Of a stretch of 64,000 bases of DNA, positions 17,601 to 64,000 are shown in pieces (position 1 is the first letter of the stretch; each line of letters starts with the position of its first letter). Made by a program: the position numbers and the translations under genes. The stretch comes from Octopus sinensis (taxonomy: Eukaryota): NCBI RefSeq assembly GCF_006345805.1, contig NC_042997.1:179862001-179926000 (forward strand), read 5' to 3'. The notes beneath the pieces were generated by a model, which was not told where the DNA came from, ran no database searches, and worked only from the letters and a program-made list of their open reading frames with translations.

Positions 17601-18001
17601 ATTATCGCTAATCCTGTAAGATTTACAGTCTATTCTATCGTTCGATTAATTTATATCCCTCAATTATTCTAATTACTAGCGAAATAATTACTTCCATTTT
17701 ATGTTATCTTCCTCTTGATAGTAACCCCCAATCGAATTTACAATTACAGTTACAATTAGCCACTTGCTGATAATCTCCATTGTCTCATTTGGTTCCTGCA
17801 CAATCTTTGTTTAGTTTCCGTGTTCCTTTGCGTAAAATCTATCAGTGATCAGTCTCAATGAATGGCATATCTTCTTGATATTCCCCCTAATGCAATTGAC
17901 TTCTCATCAAAATTTCTGTGCTCGCAGAAGTGTAGAACGTGGATATTACGAACAACAACAGAAGTGTATCAACTAAATAGATCATATATATATATATAAA
18001 C

Positions 18002-18085
<84 letters not shown>

Positions 18086-18301
18086 AAATACTAAATTTCT
18101 AAATCTCTCGTAGAGACATGTATGGTAGTGGGGCTATAGAATGGTTGTATACTGTCAATTTAACACGAACGTGACAGTTGGGGGGTACCCCACCGCTGTA
18201 TAGCCCTAGGAAGCATCGACGCCTCCTGATGGCTTTGACACATTTTTCCCTGTGTCCTTATATACATTTACGAAGGGGAGACAAACACCCCCGGAGCTGC
18301 A

Positions 18302-18346
18302 TCTAGGGACACGTGTTTCAGGATCATTGTCCTTTATCGGCCTAGA
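18302..18346 (-). ncRNA. Type I hammerhead ribozyme fold with variant core (CCGAUAA instead of CUGAUGA)
   Basis: Minus strand: tctagg-CCGATAA-AGGA caatga TCCT-GAAA-cacgt-GTC-cctaga. Perfect 6-bp stem I, 4-bp stem II, palindromic stem III (ACACGTGT), GUC cleavage triplet. Confidence 0.7.
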
Positions 18347-18375
18347 GTAGCATACACCGGTCAGCTGGCGATATT

Positions 18376-20110
18376 ATATCTTTATTATGGGCACGATGGC
18401 CCGAATGCAGAGGGGACATTACAAGACGGGACATGGGGTACATAAAGTAAAAATAAATTATGAAATAAAGCTGAATTATGTGTAATGATTTAGATGGAAC
18501 GGCTTACGAGCCCCCCAACTCGCAGTTCCGTTTAAAATACAACTTTACATTTTACAATTTTACAATTACATATATTCCAGTTCAAAATACAATTTTACAT
18601 TTTACAATTTTACAATTTACAATGTTACAATTACATAAATTCCAGTTCTGTTGGACGTTCGTCCGTAACGTACTTTGTTAATTCCATCTGGTCTATCACA
18701 TTTGGCAAATTGTCATAACATACATAATACGTTAAATAAACCTCATCAAACATACTTTTCAATTTAGTAAATGTTCCTTTATCTACAACTACCCCTTTCA
18801 CAACGTCATCATACAGTTTTGGGTGTAATTTAACCCTAATCAATCCTTTCCTACCTGCAAGTCTTTTTTCCACTTCTGTGTCTTTGACGTACAACACGAA
18901 TACTTTCAGGTATTTTCCTACAGGTCTTTTTCCCTTTTTACAAGCATCCAACTGTTCTCTCACTTTTTTTCTCCATTCTAGGTTTACCTCTGTCTTTGTC
19001 TGTTCGTCCTTTTCTTTGCACGTTCTCTCTTCTTTTTCTTCTGTTATCTTGCTTTTGATTTTTTTCTTTTTTAGAACTTTCGGTGGTGCTTCCACCCTTG
19101 TTCTCTTCCTATCTTCTGTTCTTTCACCCTCTGCACTTGCACGTTCTTCTTCCATATCCTCAATTAGCTGCTCCTCCGTTTGCGCCTCGACTACTTTCTT
19201 TTCCTCCTCCAATTCTCCCTCCTCCACACACGTATCTTTCCACTCATTCGTTACAGCCTCCGGTGCTATCGTTTTCTCCAGCGGGCACACATCCTTCATG
19301 TGGCCTCTTAATTTGCAATTATAACAGACTGGAGGTCTTCCCTCTAACACGACTCTAAGCCGTGTCTCATTAGGGAAGACCAACTCCTCCGGGATGTTGT
19401 ATAGGTCTGGCACGGTTATATGTGCCAGAACCTGTACCGCATATCCCCACCACTTAACTTCTGTTGACTTTTCCACCTTCACCACCTCCACACTTTCCTT
19501 GCAATTGAAAACTACTGCCGCTAATATCCTCTCCATGTTAAGTTCGGGCGAAATCCTACTAATTCTTATTCTGACTGCCCTCTTTCCGCAGTAACTAGGT
19601 AATAAAGTCCAACTTTCAGATTACAGAATTTTTGTCGCATTCTTTCTTGCTTCATTTTCATTTTTAAAGTGTACCACCACTGTGGGATATTTCCTTCCTC
19701 TTTTGAAAAAGGTAGGTTCACCCTCAATTCCTTGCAGACATTTCTCTATTTCTTCCGTCTCTGCTACTTCTATTTTTCTTGACGCCACACACCATGTCCT
19801 GTATGTTATCATACGTTTCTCCGCGTTGTTTTCTTCTTCTTCGGACGGTGTGACTCTCACGCAGTCACCCTCCCTCTTCAAAATGTCGTAATATTTTTCT
19901 AAAGTCTTCTTCTCGACTACCACTTCTTCCATTTCTAGTTCACTCGCAACCAGGCCTCTGCCTGCTGCTCTCGCATACGTCTGGTCTTGCATTTTCAAAA
20001 TCTCCAAATAAAATTCACCACGTCCTCCAGCAACGAACTCGAACTCACAACCTCTTCACAATGACGCACTCAAAACAAACACACCAGAATAACGACTCCA
20101 ATAAAAAATA
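18376..20110 (-). mobile_element. ORF1-only non-autonomous non-LTR retroelement (Tx1/L1-group ORF1, HAL1-like)
   Basis: ~120-nt 5' UTR, one ORF1, ~250-nt 3' UTR ending in AATAAA (18381-18386). Flanked by ggtcagctggcgatatt (18359-18375) and ggtcggctggtgatatt (20111-20127). Confidence 0.7.
18631..19992 (-). pseudogene. Gag-like/ORF1p nucleic-acid chaperone with CX2CX4HX4C zinc knuckle (~453 codons, one internal stop)
   Basis: Track ORFs 19621-20007 and 18631-19536 are in the same frame, separated by a single TAA (19621-19623). The bridge reads SESWTLLPSYCGKRAVRIRISRISPELN. Motif IPEELVF..RLRVVLEGRPPVCYNCKLRGHMKDVCP is typical of Tx1/L1 ORF1; N-terminal TYARAA. Confidence 0.8.
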
Positions 20111-20478
20111 GGTCGGCTGGTGATATTTGTCTCGACATCGTATTGTATATATCTATAATTCAGTGAAGTCTATTCACTGATTATCAAAATAAGAAATACT
20201 AAATTTCTAAATCTCTCGTAGAGACTTGTACGGTGGTGGGGCGATAGAATGGTTGTATACTGTCAATCTAACACGAACGTGACAGTAGGGGGGTAACTCA
20301 CCGCTGTATAGCCGTAGGAAGCATCGACGCTTCCTGATGTCTCCCCTTCGTAAATATATATTAGGAAACAGGGAAAAATGTGTCAAAGCCATCAGGAGGC
20401 GTCGATGCTTCCTACGGCTATACAGCGGTGAGTTAGCCCCCTACTGAAACGTTCGTGTTAGATTGGCAGTATACAACC

Positions 20479-20536
<58 letters not shown>

Positions 20537-20612
20537 TATATATATGTATGTATGTATGTGTGTATATGTAGAGAATGTTAGGTGAGGTGTACAGAAATTG
20601 AATATTGAGAAA

Positions 20613-21662
20613 AAAGTCGTCAGAATTTTGGTAAAAAATATTTTTATTTCTTCATTTTTATTATTAGCGCTTTCGCTCGTTTCTCGAACTTGTCAAATAA
20701 AAATCTTGTGAATGTACAAACAGCTTCGTATTTATATAAAACAGATGATTTTGGGGGTGGAGTCTTAGAAGACGAGAGCATTGTTTTTGTTTTTGAGGGT
20801 GAGGTTCCATGACAATGTAGATAGATAGAGCGAAATATAGGTAGGTAAAAAGGCTGACAGACAGATACATAGATAGGTAGAGAGAGATAGAGAGAAGGGG
20901 AGCCCCCTTCCTATTCACCATTCATTTATTTATTTAGTCATTTGCCATTGTATTGGAAAGGGTTTAAAAATAAAAAAAAGAACAGGTATGGTGTGGTCAT
21001 CACTGAAAGTCTTTTTGCTTTCTTTCTCTCTTACCCTCTCTTTTTCTTCCTTTTCTCTTTCTTTTTTCTCCTCATTCCTTCTTTGTCCCTCTTTCTTTTT
21101 CTCCTCTTTATATATAGAATTGAAAGTCGTCAGAATTTTGGAAAAAAATCTTTTTATTTCTTCATAATTATTAGCGCTTTCGCTCGTTTCTCGAACTTGT
21201 CAAATGAATTTTTGTGAATGTACAAATAGCTTCTTAATTATATAAAACATGTTTTTTGGGGGGGGAGGGTGTGCAGTTGTTTAGAAGAAGAGAACCTTGT
21301 TTTTGCTTTTTGGGGTGAGGTTCCATGACAATGTAAATAGATATATGGAAATATAGGTAGGTAAATAGGCTGATAGACGGATAGATAGGTAGAGAGAGAG
21401 AGATAGAGAGAAGGGGAACCACACTTCCTATTCAGCATTCAGTTATTTATTTAGTCATTTAACATTGTATTGGAATGGGTTTAAGGATAGTGACATCGTC
21501 AAAAGGTCAAAAAAAGAACAGGTGTGGTGTGGTTATCAGTGAAAGTCTTTTTGCTTTCTTTCTCTCTTACCCTTCTTTTTCCTTCCTTTTCTCTTTATTT
21601 CTTTTCTCCTCATTCCTTCTTCGTCCCTCTTTCTTTTTCTCCTCTTTATATATAGAATTGAA
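20613..21662. repeat. Diverged tandem duplication of a ~520-bp unit (possibly Helentron/HINE-like ends)
   Basis: aaagtcgtcagaattttgg...ctcctctttatatatagaattg occurs at ~20613-21122 and ~21123-21662. Confidence 0.8.
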
Positions 21663-21779
21663 AATGTACTGTCACCCCTTTTCTTTCAAACATACAATTT
21701 TGGAGATAATTTTTTGATGAAATGTAGTTCTGCATGAAAAAACATTAGTATAATATTCGCAAATTAAAAATTAAAATAC

Positions 21780-21889: not shown

Positions 21890-23218
21890 AATTTAATAAA
21901 TAAAATATATGCATACATACATACATATATGTACGTACCTACATCTATATGTATATATACATGCATATATATATATATATATATAATATATATATATTAT
22001 ATATATAATATATATATATATTTATGAGTCCAGGGCACCACACATAAACATAGAACACAACGAGAAGTAAAAACATAAAAACAAACTAGGAAACGGCCTT
22101 TTTTAACAACGAAAAAACAGAGTACAAGACAAACAATTAAAGGAATATTCCTCTTCATCAGCTGTCCCTTGTTCGACTCAATGCGTGTTTCGAAGGTAAG
22201 GACAGAACACGATCCGGCCGAAGTAGTCCTTCCTGCAAAATAATTAAATAAAATTCTTTTGCAGAGGAGTAAAACAAGGAAAGAAAAAAAAAGGAACAAG
22301 AACAGGACGTAAAAGCAATACAAATAAAAATACAGTACACATAAAGAATAAAAACAGGACAATGAAACCAACATTGAGGGCTTTTTTAAAGCCTAGACGA
22401 TGGAAAAATTCGGAACGCAATTGAGAATCGACTTTCTAGAGACAGAAAAAGTTGGTGTTGACTTGTAGAAAGCTGCGAGCAAAAGAAAGTTAGTAGTCCA
22501 CTCAGCAGTGAGAGAAATGAGGAGGAGTGAGAGAGATGAGGAGGAATGAGAGAGAGAGAGAGAGGAAAGGAAACCAGAAAGGGTGAAAAATAAGAAGGAG
22601 AGAGATAGGTAGAGAGGAAGACAGACAGGAAGAAAGGAAAGGTCAAGTAAAGGGTTAGAGAGTTCGCGTCATAATTATATATAAAAACTTACTTGGAGAA
22701 AAGAAACGAAACGACGCGAGGGCGCTCAGTCGTATAAAAATTTAGTGGACTACTAACTTTCTTTGGCTCGAAGCTTTCTACAAGTCAACACCGACGTTTT
22801 CTGTCTCTAGAAAGTCGATTCTCAATTGCGCTCCGAAATTTCCATCGTCTAGGCTTAAAAAAGCTCTCAATGTTGGTTTCATTGTCCTGTTTTTATTCTT
22901 TATGTGTACTGTATTTTTATTTGTATTGCTTTTACGTCCTGTTCTTGTCACTTTTTTTCTTTCCTTGTTTTACCCCTCTGCAAAAGAATTTTATTTAATT
23001 CTTTTGCAGGAAGTATTGTTTCGACCAGGTCGTGTTCTGTCGTTACCTTCGAAACATGGATTGAGTCGGACCAGGGACAGCTGATGAAGAGGAATATTTC
23101 TTGTATTGTTTGTCTTGTACTCTGTTTTTTCGTTGTTAAAAAAAAGTCCGTTTCCTAGTTTGTTTTTATGTTTTCGTTTCTCGTTGTGTTCTACGTTTAT
23201 TTGTGGTGTCCTGTACTC

Positions 23219-24146: not shown

Positions 24147-25603
24147 ATTAGTTAGTTAGTTAGTTAGTTAGTTAATTTGGCTCAAAAGCAAATAGCAAGG
24201 CCATGTAGGGGGACATGGAGTTAAGTACAGGGTGGTGTTCATGTAAAGAGTTCAGGCCACTTGAGGTCAAGGGAGGCTTTGAACAAAGCGGTCGTAGGCA
24301 TCTTCACCATCTCGTCTGGCAGCTTGTTCCACGGATTCGCAACCCGGACGGAGAAAGCTCCTCTCCTTCGATTGAGATGAAATCGTCGCAGGTAGAGCTT
24401 TTCGGAATGACCCAGCAGCCGACGCTCTGGAGCAGGAGTGAAGAACAGCTCTTTCGAGAGGTTACACTTTCCGCTTATGATGTTGTAGGCGAGAATGAGA
24501 TCACCACGGCGGCGGCGTTTTTCAAGAGAATAAAGGTCGAGCGTCCTCAGCCTTTCTTCGTAGGACAAATTTTTGAGACCATGAACCATGCGGGTAGCCA
24601 GCTTCTGGACTCTTTCGAGATGCTGTATGTCTTTGAGGAGATAAGGAGAAGAGGCTTGAATCCCATACTCCAATATGGGTCTCACCAGCGTGACATAGAG
24701 TGGTAGGAATATGGCTGCTGTGAGCATTCCGAATGACCATCGAATCAAGAACAGAATTCCGCGTGCTTTGTTGGCAGCATGGACGCACTGGGCCGAAGGC
24801 GAAAAGGAGGAATCCACCAAGATACCTAGGTCCTTTACCTGATCGGTCCTCTCCAGCAGCAGACGACCCGGCTCGAAATCAAGTTGAGTTGCAGGAGTAG
24901 AGCCGACAGGCAGATGACAGCACTTTGACACGTTTAGACACAGGTCCCAATTGTTAGACCACTTCCAAATTTGGTGGAGGCATCGACGAAGATCCTCTAT
25001 ATTACCGCGAGGAGCGACCAGTTTGATATCGTTGGCAAATAGAAGGGTGTGTTGCGTGAGATCGTCGGGCAAGTCATTTATGAAGACTAAGAACAACAAG
25101 GGCCCAAGCACTGAACCTTGAGGCACGCCACTGCTCGCACTGGAGACGTCGGACCGCGAACCATTAACTTGGACTTGGAAGGAGCGATCTGAGAGGAAGG
25201 CACCAACCCATCGTACAATATCCGGATGGAAACTATATGCTTGAAGCTTGACAAGCAATAGGCGGTGGTTTACCGAGTCAAAAGCTTTGGCAAAGTCCAG
25301 TAAAACGATGTCAACAGCATCACTATCATCGAGGATGCGCGTCACTATTTCTTCCATTACTAGTAGGTTGGTCAAGCATGATCTCTTCGGCACGAAGCCG
25401 TGTTGGGAATCAGAGATAGAGGCTGTGTTTAGGAGGTGGAGCATCATACTTTTCTTAAGGATGGTTTCGAACATCTTGCTGATAATTGATGTAAGGGAAA
25501 CCGGTCGGTAGTTAAGCGGGTCTTCGCGGCTCCCTTTCTTGAAAATTGGGCAGATTATCGCTGTTCTCCAGTCTGCAGGTATAACACCCGTCGCCAATGA
25601 CAT
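24147..25603 (-). mobile_element. 5'-truncated young CR1-clade LINE with (TAAC)n tail
   Basis: Uninterrupted RT ORF, short 3' UTR, tetranucleotide tail at 24147-24174, GC content clearly higher than the flanks. Confidence 0.95.
24239..25603 (-). CDS. CR1 ORF2 reverse transcriptase domain and C-terminus (partial, catalytic motif FAND)
   Basis: NYRPVSLTS, QHGF...SCLTNLL, LDFAKAFDSVNH, SGVPQGSVLGPLLF, FANDIKL, LERVQKLATRM, RRRRGDLI, WNKLP. Confidence 0.9.
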   Translation of the reverse strand: MSLATGVIPADWRTAIICPIFKKGSREDPLNYRPVSLTSIISKMFETILKKSMMLHLLNTASISDSQHGFVPKRSCLTNLLVMEEIVTRILDDSDAVDIVLLDFAKAFDSVNHRLLLVKLQAYSFHPDIVRWVGAFLSDRSFQVQVNGSRSDVSSASSGVPQGSVLGPLLFLVFINDLPDDLTQHTLLFANDIKLVAPRGNIEDLRRCLHQIWKWSNNWDLCLNVSKCCHLPVGSTPATQLDFEPGRLLLERTDQVKDLGILVDSSFSPSAQCVHAANKARGILFLIRWSFGMLTAAIFLPLYVTLVRPILEYGIQASSPYLLKDIQHLERVQKLATRMVHGLKNLSYEERLRTLDLYSLEKRRRRGDLILAYNIISGKCNLSKELFFTPAPERRLLGHSEKLYLRRFHLNRRRGAFSVRVANPWNKLPDEMVKMPTTALFKASLDLKWPELFT

Positions 25604-40395: not shown

Positions 40396-40585
40396 TCCGG
40401 GTTGCGGATCCGTGGAACAAGCTGCCAGACGAGATGGTGAAGATGCCGACGACCGCTTTGTTCAAAGCCTCCCTGGACCTCAAGTGGCCTGAACTCTTTA
40501 CATGAACACCACCCTGTACTTAACTCCATGTCCCCCTACATGGCCTTGCTATTTGCTTTTGAGCCAAATTAACTAACTAACTAAC
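40396..40585 (+). mobile_element. CR1 3' end, second copy of the 24147 element
   Basis: Matches the reverse complement of ~24160-24348 with about 3 substitutions; (TAAC)n tail; inserted between (CAA)n and (TAA)n. Confidence 0.95.
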
Positions 40586-62678: not shown

Positions 62679-63094
62679 TAGGCGGCGAGCTGGTAGAAAC
62701 GTTAGCACACCGGGCGAAATGCTTTGCGGTATTTCGTCTGCCGCTACGTTCTGGGTTAAAATTCCGCCGAGGTCGACTTTGCCTTTCATCCTTTCGGGTT
62801 CGATTGAATAAGTACCAGTTACGCACTGGGGTCGATGTAATCGACTTAATCCATTTCTCTGTCCTTGTTTGTCCCTTCTGTGTTTAGCCCCTTGTGGGTA
62901 GTAAAGAAATAGGTATTTCGTCTGTCGTTACGTTCTGAGTTCAAATTTCGCCGAGGTGGACTTTGCCTTTCATCCTTTCGGGGTCGATAAATAAAGTACT
63001 AGTTTCGCACTGGGGTCGATGTAATCGACTTAATCCTTTTGTCTGTCCTTGTTTGTACCCTCTATGTTTAGTCCCTTCTGGGCAATAAAGAAAT
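62679..63094 (+). mobile_element. SINE with internal tandem duplication of a ~185-195-bp unit
   Basis: ggtatttcgtctg...taaagaaata occurs at 62728-62910 and 62912-63094. Flanks share tatatatttaaatgtcttta (62658-62678 / 63095-63115), a probable TSD. Confidence 0.85.
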
Positions 63095-64000
63095 ATATAT
63101 ATTTAAATGTCTTTAGAATGGTGCACTTGAGTGTGAAGAATCTAACCGAAAGAGGTTTTACTGGAAGTCTACTTTTTTTGTTTAGAAGATAGTTTTTAAT
63201 ATACACCCTACCATTGACTCATGATTGATTTTACATCGCTACCTTTCTATTATCCTGCTGTTGAAGAGAAGAGATATGTCTACATATTTACATATATATC
63301 CTAGAATTATATTCTAATCCTAGAATTACAATTATATCCTGGAGAAATAATTTGTCTAGTGTATAAATAAATATGAATCTTACTATATATGATTTATGTA
63401 TTATTGATGTAGACTTACACAAATTTATTGAGGTCTTTGGCAGAATTTACAAACATAAATTATTGAGGGATTTCGTCAATATTTACAGCTATCTGACACT
63501 AAATTTCTTGAGAACAATTTCAAATTTTTAGTCCAAAATTTCAGAGTATTTGATATGAAGAAGATTGTCCAAGAGAGATTTAACTTAAAATTTACTGTAT
63601 ATACCTAGTGATTATTTCGAAAAACTGCCTTTCTGATGTATTGCTAATGAATAATAAAGGCATGTATATATTTGTAACTAGTGTGTCCTTGTTTTATGTA
63701 ACAAACACTCTTTCAGAAGGGTTTGTTTACTTTCCATAGATGTAACGTTTCAAATATTTGCTACCTTGAATTAGTGTACCAGGTAGTTTATATAAGTTGT
63801 TGATGTAATCGAATTTATTTGGTGCTGCTATTATCGACTCGGAAAGCATGTAGAAAGGCATAAATAGGCGCTATGTTTGTTGCATTCTACATACGTACAT
63901 ACAAGCAAGTGCATACAAACACTGAAACACACACACATACACATCGTTTGCTTATTTCAGCCATTAGAGTGCGGCAATGCTGAAACACCGCTGTGAATGG

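Follow-up and report, generated by a model that had tools for sequence, protein, structure and literature searches.

In the 64,000 nucleotides of Octopus sinensis DNA analysed here (NC_042997.1, positions 179,862,001 to 179,926,000; hereafter the window), a retroelement unit was found on the minus strand, inserted into a ribozyme repeat, the second half of which is at 20128-20342. The features of the locus are as follows.

17984-18083, no strand: (TA)n flank of the whole composite, from the sequence.
18081-18375, minus: downstream half of the host repeat (monomer positions 1-302 of 363), ending on (TA)n, from host comparison.
18298-18352, minus: minimal type I hammerhead with stem I at 18341-18346/18302-18307, core at 18334-18340 (CCGATAA), a predicted cut after 18308 and a palindromic stem III, from descriptor and covariation.
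18359-18375, minus: inner (3') 17-mer of the target duplication, equal to the commonest empty-host variant (17/27 nearest empty sites).
18376-20110, minus: body of an ORF1-only non-autonomous LINE (T-run, 5' UTR, ORF, 3' UTR, tail), with ends common to 51/77 genome matches.
18376-18425, minus: 3' tail A, consisting of TGTAATGTCCC, a stem-loop (18389-18402), AATAAA (18381-18386) and GATAT, a layout common to autonomous partners.
18631-19992, minus: ORF1, 453 codons plus stop, with the ATG at 19992, the stop at 18631-18633 and an interrupting TAA at 19621-19623; the frame is open in relatives (L004, 452 aa).
18652-19005 (approximate limits), minus: family-specific C-terminal part, a long helix plus a beta-alpha-beta-beta-alpha-beta domain, not in autonomous ORF1.
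19285-19326, minus: CCHC zinc knuckle after two predicted RRMs, from sequence, model and fold searches.
20111-20127, minus: outer (5') 17-mer, with two differences from the host variant and seen in 0/27 nearest empty sites; likely an element-borne RNA leader.
20128-20342, minus: upstream half of the host repeat (positions 149-363), with TATA-like TATAGATATATACA at about 20144-20157, from host comparison.
20338-20485, plus: inverted 5'-truncated host arm (positions 100-247), Penelope-type, from host comparison.
20481-20557, no strand: (TA)n flank of the whole composite, from the sequence.

A sequence check found the anatomy described in the first-pass annotation in every particular and at its coordinates: an ORF of about 453 codons broken by one stop, a CCHC knuckle, AATAAA, 17-mers identical at 15/17 positions, and a hammerhead whose stem I begins 12 nt beyond the inner 17-mer. 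No ORF2 occurs within 18376-20110, and the unit is a decayed copy of its family. Other repeats in the window include a segment of about 540 nt duplicated beside the composite (20580-21720), a MITE-like inverted pair of about 190 nt (22099-22290 / 22952-23143; 91%, 661 nt apart), a second inverted repeat pair of about 190 nt (24159-24348 / 40396-40585; 98%), and a 184-nt two-copy tandem that is likely a common octopus SINE (62728-63095).

A structure model of the ORF1 protein was built from 118 sequences (pLDDT 80.7). It placed RRM-type domains at about residues 56-136 and 137-220, then the knuckle and a disordered stretch, and at the C terminus a long helix (320-351) and a compact beta-alpha-beta-beta-alpha-beta domain. 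Foldseek with this model retrieved tandem-RRM proteins (best E 4.4e-5), and a wide fold search retrieved the La RRM (Z 8.9, rmsd 2.6, 80 aligned); the wide search with a first structure model, which was unsuccessful for residues 1-325, had returned helices only. Furthermore, Atlas gave CCHC and ZCCHC3 RNA-binding clusters at 0.90-0.93, and the knuckle matched Pfam zf-CCHC at only E 0.038. A word-based protein search with residues 1-260 gave no match, where a profile search gave 484. The N-terminal profile matched 20/20 autonomous loci and the profile of the C-terminal domain 0/20. The latter domain had no significant fold or Atlas match, only weak ferredoxin-like rows, and its likeness to the N-terminal RRMs was not significant (P 0.12). 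The marks of an LTR-type Gag were not found, there being no LTR and the model matching tandem RRMs and not a capsid fold. Judged by the model, the protein earlier labelled Gag-like is better read as a LINE ORF1p of RRM-RRM-CCHC type than as a capsid Gag.

The unit proved to have many relatives. A DNA search of the 2.72-Gb genome gave at least 77 matches, with the best 40 of 273 candidates scored, and 51 of the 77 were near full length (from query position 18 or earlier to 1699 or later), many of them head to tail. A protein search of the genome gave at least 94 matches of 51-100% identity (93 of 29,409 candidates scored). Among the loci collected, 29 distinct ORFs of 410 aa or more were open; some near-identical loci (L102 and L120; L088 and L151; L174) are likely haplotype or segmental duplicates, so that copy counts are slightly inflated. 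Relatives with the C-terminal domain are also annotated in Octopus bimaculoides. The ORF is under purifying selection, with dN/dS (Nei-Gojobori) about 0.2 in a sample of 26 ORFs of 430 aa or more that held open ORFs only and whose pairs are not independent: values were 0.19, 0.22 and 0.17 for dS classes 0.05-0.2, 0.2-0.5 and >0.5, 0.36 in the 7 closest pairs, 0.09 for the RRM-CCHC part in the deepest class, and 0.17-0.35 for the C-terminal domain in the larger classes.

Two tail types were distinguished, A with 163 exact matches and B with 76. The family's ORF was present in 107 of 120 distinct tail-A copies, and an ORF2 match in the 1.2 kb upstream of tail A in none of the 120, which upholds the claim that the element has no ORF2. 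Nor is the window unit a unique internal deletion, the outcome that had been named as fatal to the proposal: its family is real and long-lived, and the one join to an ORF2 that was seen is the L115 chimera, where the family's first 201 codons are joined out of frame, at a non-homologous point, to another family's ORF1-ORF2. Homology of the ORF1 to that of autonomous LINEs, selection on it, an ORF1p without ORF2, fixed ends and target duplications together mark an ORF1-present non-autonomous LINE. In L113, L118, L081 and L066, units with tail A and units with tail B agree at 97% over the ORF and differ at the 3' end, the tail-B units lying upstream of the tail-A units; this is tail swapping between lineages. 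Units of about 1.38 kb in L098 (5960-8730) join a partner-type 5' end and ORF1 to the family's 3' part and tail, and represent another, more recent ORF1-only derivative that occupies the same site. Another ORF1-like family (L061:700-4570), 31-40% identical, tandem and apparently without ORF2, has a 5' end that is itself a target.

Empty copies of the host repeat are 363-nt monomers in partial tandems. Each carries a single 17-mer, as the first-pass annotation had supposed of unoccupied repeats. Exact empty sites numbered 203 in the genome versus 23 exact filled junctions, and the reversed sequence gave 0 matches against these 23. The host shows a type I hammerhead on tandem monomers in the 150-450-nt range (here at 363-nt spacing), together with an inverted truncated arm and a one-sided extension, and the last two have been described for Penelope-like elements (PMC8557442). 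Host arms ended at position 302 in 21 cases and at 247 in 15 (L031-L060). The host repeat fits a non-LTR retrozyme, for which self-cleavage and circular RNA would be expected; none of the listed sequencing runs is recorded as RNA.

In the window copy, the hammerhead core reads CCGATAA and not CCGATGA, which is the core of 24/66 descriptor matches; the C3-G8 pair has therefore likely been lost from this copy. Rfam reported no hammerhead, either in the window at gathering score or, with E allowed up to 5, in an empty host, and energy folding of the lone motif gave no hammerhead fold (z -0.40), because such minimal motifs fall outside those models. Nevertheless, covariation upholds the fold in 20 hammerheads from target repeats, where 12 of 15 pairs showed changes on both sides (0/500 shuffles) and 90.3% of cells were paired (slid controls 20-45%), figures that are inflated by kinship among the sequences. 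Among their cores is U3-A8, a variant that has been reported in Penelope hammerheads (PMC4209133).

One protein search supplied 30 + 20 Penelope loci, in none of which an autonomous Penelope partner sharing the host repeat was found. The L076 Penelope RT was considered as owner of the adjacent hammerhead repeat and dropped, such a repeat being absent from 50 loci of that and related families. L202, L210 and L220 (782-aa ORF) represent a young, abundant Penelope family with an RT and a GIY-YIG-like end, which is not the owner of the target repeats; one copy of this type lies 2 kb behind the L076 array. An origin of the window's host halves from different variants was also rejected. The halves match at 92.9%, as do the two arms of the locus, which is thus simply older.

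Full-length autonomous relatives occur alongside the family. In the arrays of L076, L103, L116 and L095, its units are accompanied by frames with APE, RT and zf-RVT, and a search with one partner returned 71 matches, many with open frames of 1126-1181 aa. A partner ORF2 of 1134 aa carries APE, RT and zf-RVT, and the partner ORF1 is 25-33% identical to family residues 31-235. The ORF2 in L115 had human L1 ORF2p as its best solved match (E 2.6e-52, versus 8e-24 for R2). Partners have the domain set of the Tx1 clade, namely APE, RT and a C-terminal zinc domain, and are nearer L1 than R2; searches returned no named Tx1 reference, the nearest named ORF2 match being an Argonauta hypothetical protein. 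By sequence, the partners belong to the L1/Tx1 group, and the assignment stops at that level, not at Tx1 proper.

The partner tail has the family's layout of TGTAATGT, stem-loop and AATAAAGA, and tail B nearly equals the tail of a second partner family (L115, L091); the autonomous partner sharing the 3' end, which had been proposed as a thing to look for, does exist. Of 20 partner sites fetched, 16 were at the hammerhead repeat, 1 at U2 and 3 elsewhere. The nearest to the window's host were partners in L132 and L133, which lie in repeats 78-81% identical to it; its exact subfamily (the AATATCACC host) held none of the intact partners. The family likely uses partner RT and endonuclease in trans, given the tail layout, sites and arrays that it has in common with the partners.

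Within 70 nt of the end of tail A, a strict descriptor detected a hammerhead in 66/120 copies, and in 29/61 among loci picked by tail alone (controls, 33/4000 random and 5/3600 shuffled). A multicopy target preference has been defined as more than 20% of flanks (PMC4494074); both the partners (16/20) and the tail-A copies exceed this share. When the 120 tail-A sites were sorted by eye, 77 were hammerheads (11 degenerate), 22 the next array element, 1 U2, 3 other and 17 unrelated. In all descriptor matches but one, the 3' junction fell at AATAAAGA, 21-38 nt before the hammerhead core. Target duplications were mostly 12-20 bp. The hammerhead targets comprise several diverged families with differing 17-mers, and tail-B targets were a repeat of about 1.6 kb with CCAAT and TATA, LTRs, and the 5' ends both of other LINEs and of tail-A units. 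The first-pass view of a non-autonomous Tx1-like family at a ribozyme repeat thus stands as to same-length copies, open selected ORFs and partners with the tail, and fails in its wording that insertion is always at AATATCRCCAGCYGACC, since several hammerhead-repeat families, U2 snRNA and unrelated promoters were also hit. Targeting is not absolute, with 17/120 tail-A copies at unrelated sites and other targets used by sister tail B.

The second host (L072:3900-8200; also L065, L067, L068, L070 and L084) is a repeat of about 1.6 kb with partial tandems and inverted arms. An E-box, CCAAT and TATA precede the point of insertion and a short internal repeat follows; the second host has no Rfam family and may be of Penelope type, lacking a canonical hammerhead. 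Two insertions were found at nucleotide 1 of U2 snRNA, one of a partner (L123:8114-8307) and one of an ORF1-only copy (L179:303-493), both 2-4 nt before Rfam model position 1. L087 holds a U6atac snRNA gene at 435-544 (Rfam 68.7 bits).

TATA-like motifs cluster at -24 to -32 of the insertion points (64 arrays tallied, many of one family). Among 16 targets that were neither hammerhead nor U2, a strict TATA at about -29 to -32 was present in 8 versus a background of 4.7% (binomial P about 2e-7, motif and window having been chosen after the data were seen; six were scored by script and L139 and L187 from printout, and L187 may be host-2 kin). It was missing from 8/16. This result suggests that unrelated targets have promoter geometry in common, not sequence. 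The Penelope pLTR has likewise been reported to contain a transcription start site (PMC8557442). Targeting of start sites, as predicted from sequence, has in our judgment close to an even chance of being correct, if slightly under it.

The arrays are built mostly by separate insertions: in a comparison of 51 units, the closest relative lay within the same array for only 9 of 28 array units, and adjacent units diverge by up to 14%. The host halves on either side of an element were mostly 92-99.5% alike, like neighbours in empty loci. Leaders of foreign origin were also found: a host-2 leader after a true duplication in L091, L061, L062, L071, L096 and L253, a host-H leader in off-target L024, and a hammerhead-repeat leader carried by a partner into U2 (L123). 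Since such leaders are carried into new sites, element RNA likely begins inside the duplicated host sequence. The 5' 17-mer appears, from these comparisons, to be partly element-borne, and this accounts for the 15/17 match in the window, where the inner variant occurs in 17/27 empty sites and the outer in none.

Taken together, we consider it likely, with a probability of about 0.8, that this is an ORF1-only LINE family moved by the RT and endonuclease of related full-length L1/Tx1-group elements, inserting with a 12-20-bp duplication upstream of hammerheads, at the predicted start, where it likely exploits the promoters of its targets. RNA polymerase II would start at the host promoter inside the duplicated 17-mer and read to the element's AATAAA, and the RNA would make its own ORF1 protein, which would bind that RNA. 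The partner ORF2 protein would recognise the common 3' stem-loop tail and prime at a nick 3-5 nt before the start site. Insertion rebuilds the site, as seen in the arrays, where later copies of different lineages accumulate head to tail. At five loci, read-through RNA of element plus host may occasionally have been integrated by the Penelope route. The hammerhead is part of the host and flags the site of insertion; the ends of the element are not produced by it.

It had also been proposed that a retrozyme captured a Gag-like gene and uses self-cleavage to form its RNA ends, that is, that a hammerhead repeat with an RNA-chaperone gene spreads whole by Penelope machinery, self-cleavage giving a 2.1-kb RNA or circle. 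In L197, L095, L117, L157 and L185 (5 of 17 loci picked for looking inverted or arrayed), element DNA truncated within the element does lie inside inverted arms ending at host 247 or 302, so that Penelope machinery likely integrated a composite RNA that was uncut or circular, and most full-length copies are within hosts. The idea survives to this extent, as a side route, but is not supported as an origin; the window's locus may have arisen by either route. The ends are LINE-type (tail, AATAAA and 12-20-bp duplication) and not at the cut site, the 3' junction AATAAAGA(TAT) lying about 70 nt before it; the element also occurs without any hammerhead (L024, host 2, LTRs and U2); and APE-RT partners use the same sites, arrays mix lineages, and most host sites are empty. 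As the main route the composite is largely refuted already, and we regard it as improbable. Each copy might instead be an internally deleted remnant of an autonomous element, its ORF without a role of its own. The L115 join of the ORF's 5' part to an ORF2 and the short units of L098 demonstrate that such deletions arise, yet in L115 the frame is not kept across the join, which falls at a non-homologous point, copies have fixed ends in common, and the C-terminal domain, missing from all 20 autonomous copies, is itself under purifying selection. With partner ORF1 so distant in sequence (25-33% identity), this explanation has very little to commend it.

A closer competitor keeps the same family and partner and takes the targeting to be the DNA-sequence specificity of the partner endonuclease. 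The start-site match would then be a by-product, only promoter-landed copies being transcribed and found full length, and lineages having drifted to multicopy targets. Tx1 target choice has been ascribed to the endonuclease (PMC4494074); moreover, U2 has TTyATCGCT around the nick in common with hammerhead family 3, the sites of 5'-truncated copies show no common feature, and tail type tracks target type. However, tail-B units 97-99% alike were found at no fewer than five unrelated one-off sites, with TATA at -29 to -32 and no nick sequence in common, and selection on expression leaves single new insertions at such sites unexplained. We take this competitor seriously, at somewhat worse than even odds. 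Our own wider proposal is a tentative one, which we would not yet back at even money: an octopod L1/Tx1-group clade would target RNA polymerase II start sites, rather than a DNA sequence, and take the promoter and first 17 nt, and the ORF1-only element would be its hyperparasite, with an extra domain, tail-swapping between partners and targets, and occasional travel as Penelope cargo. Hammerhead retrozymes, U2 snRNA, LTRs and other LINEs would, in that tentative scheme, all be targets, and one RNA would serve two unrelated retro-systems.

The locus displays a three-layer parasitism of Penelope, retrozyme, LINE and ORF1-only LINE. If start-site targeting is true, LINEs would have a counterpart to the tethering that guides yeast LTR elements; a ready-made set of natural targets would be at hand for examining it, and programmable insertion would gain a starting point. 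From the insertion points, the start sites of animal retrozymes can be predicted to within a few bases, and filled sites offer a test of whether insertion stops circle production. Furthermore, the extra domain and its selection make the benefit of the protein to ORF1-only elements testable.

ORF1-only LINEs and repeat-targeting Tx1 elements are known separately; the combination was not found in print. Literature searches on Tx1 with hammerheads, on Tx1 with TATA or start sites and on octopus retrozymes brought up no such family, which Repbase or supplements may already list. A 2026 octopus repeat annotation gives 13 active L1-Tx1 and 30 Penelope families, and its main text contains neither 'ribozyme' nor 'ORF1' (PMC13282606). 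HAL1, HeT-A and Ag-Sponge are ORF1-present bipartite non-autonomous LINEs (PMC5786205, PMC5753468), and a long-lived ORF1-only lineage has been reported for telomeric elements (PMC13534243). The octopus family resembles these in its single ORF1, lack of ORF2, LINE-type 3' end, probable dependence on a partner and long life, whereas it targets ribozyme repeats and promoters, has an extra C-terminal domain absent from its partners, takes its leader from the host, and uses two exchangeable tails with different targets.

Tx1-clade LINEs are reported to insert in a target-specific manner, Tx1L into Tx1D, Keno into U2, Tx1-Mar into Mariner-N4, Tx1-8_Crp into LTR elements, and others into microsatellites, and reliance on flanking transcription has been proposed for SINEU and R2 (PMC4494074). 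An APE-RT partner, insertion into other repeats and U2, and tandem insertion are alike here; the hammerhead/Penelope-type targets, U2 insertions at nucleotide 1 and a common promoter geometry differ, and the partner is assigned to the L1/Tx1 group only. The host repeat, in turn, resembles the non-LTR retrozymes and Penelope pLTR minimal hammerheads (PMC7229834; PMC4209133; PMC8557442; bioRxiv 10.64898/2026.07.22.740005) in its 363-nt tandem monomer, type I hammerhead, short palindromic helix III, U3-A8 variants, inverted 5'-truncated arm, one-end extension and microsatellite insertion; retrozymes as described, however, encode no protein and are not reported to serve as insertion targets. Finally, the telomeric HeT-A/TART elements of Drosophila also form head-to-tail arrays that mix ORF1-only and autonomous elements (PMC13534243), but they do so at chromosome ends and belong to Jockey, whereas the octopus arrays occupy internal sites rebuilt by target duplication and belong to the L1/Tx1 group.
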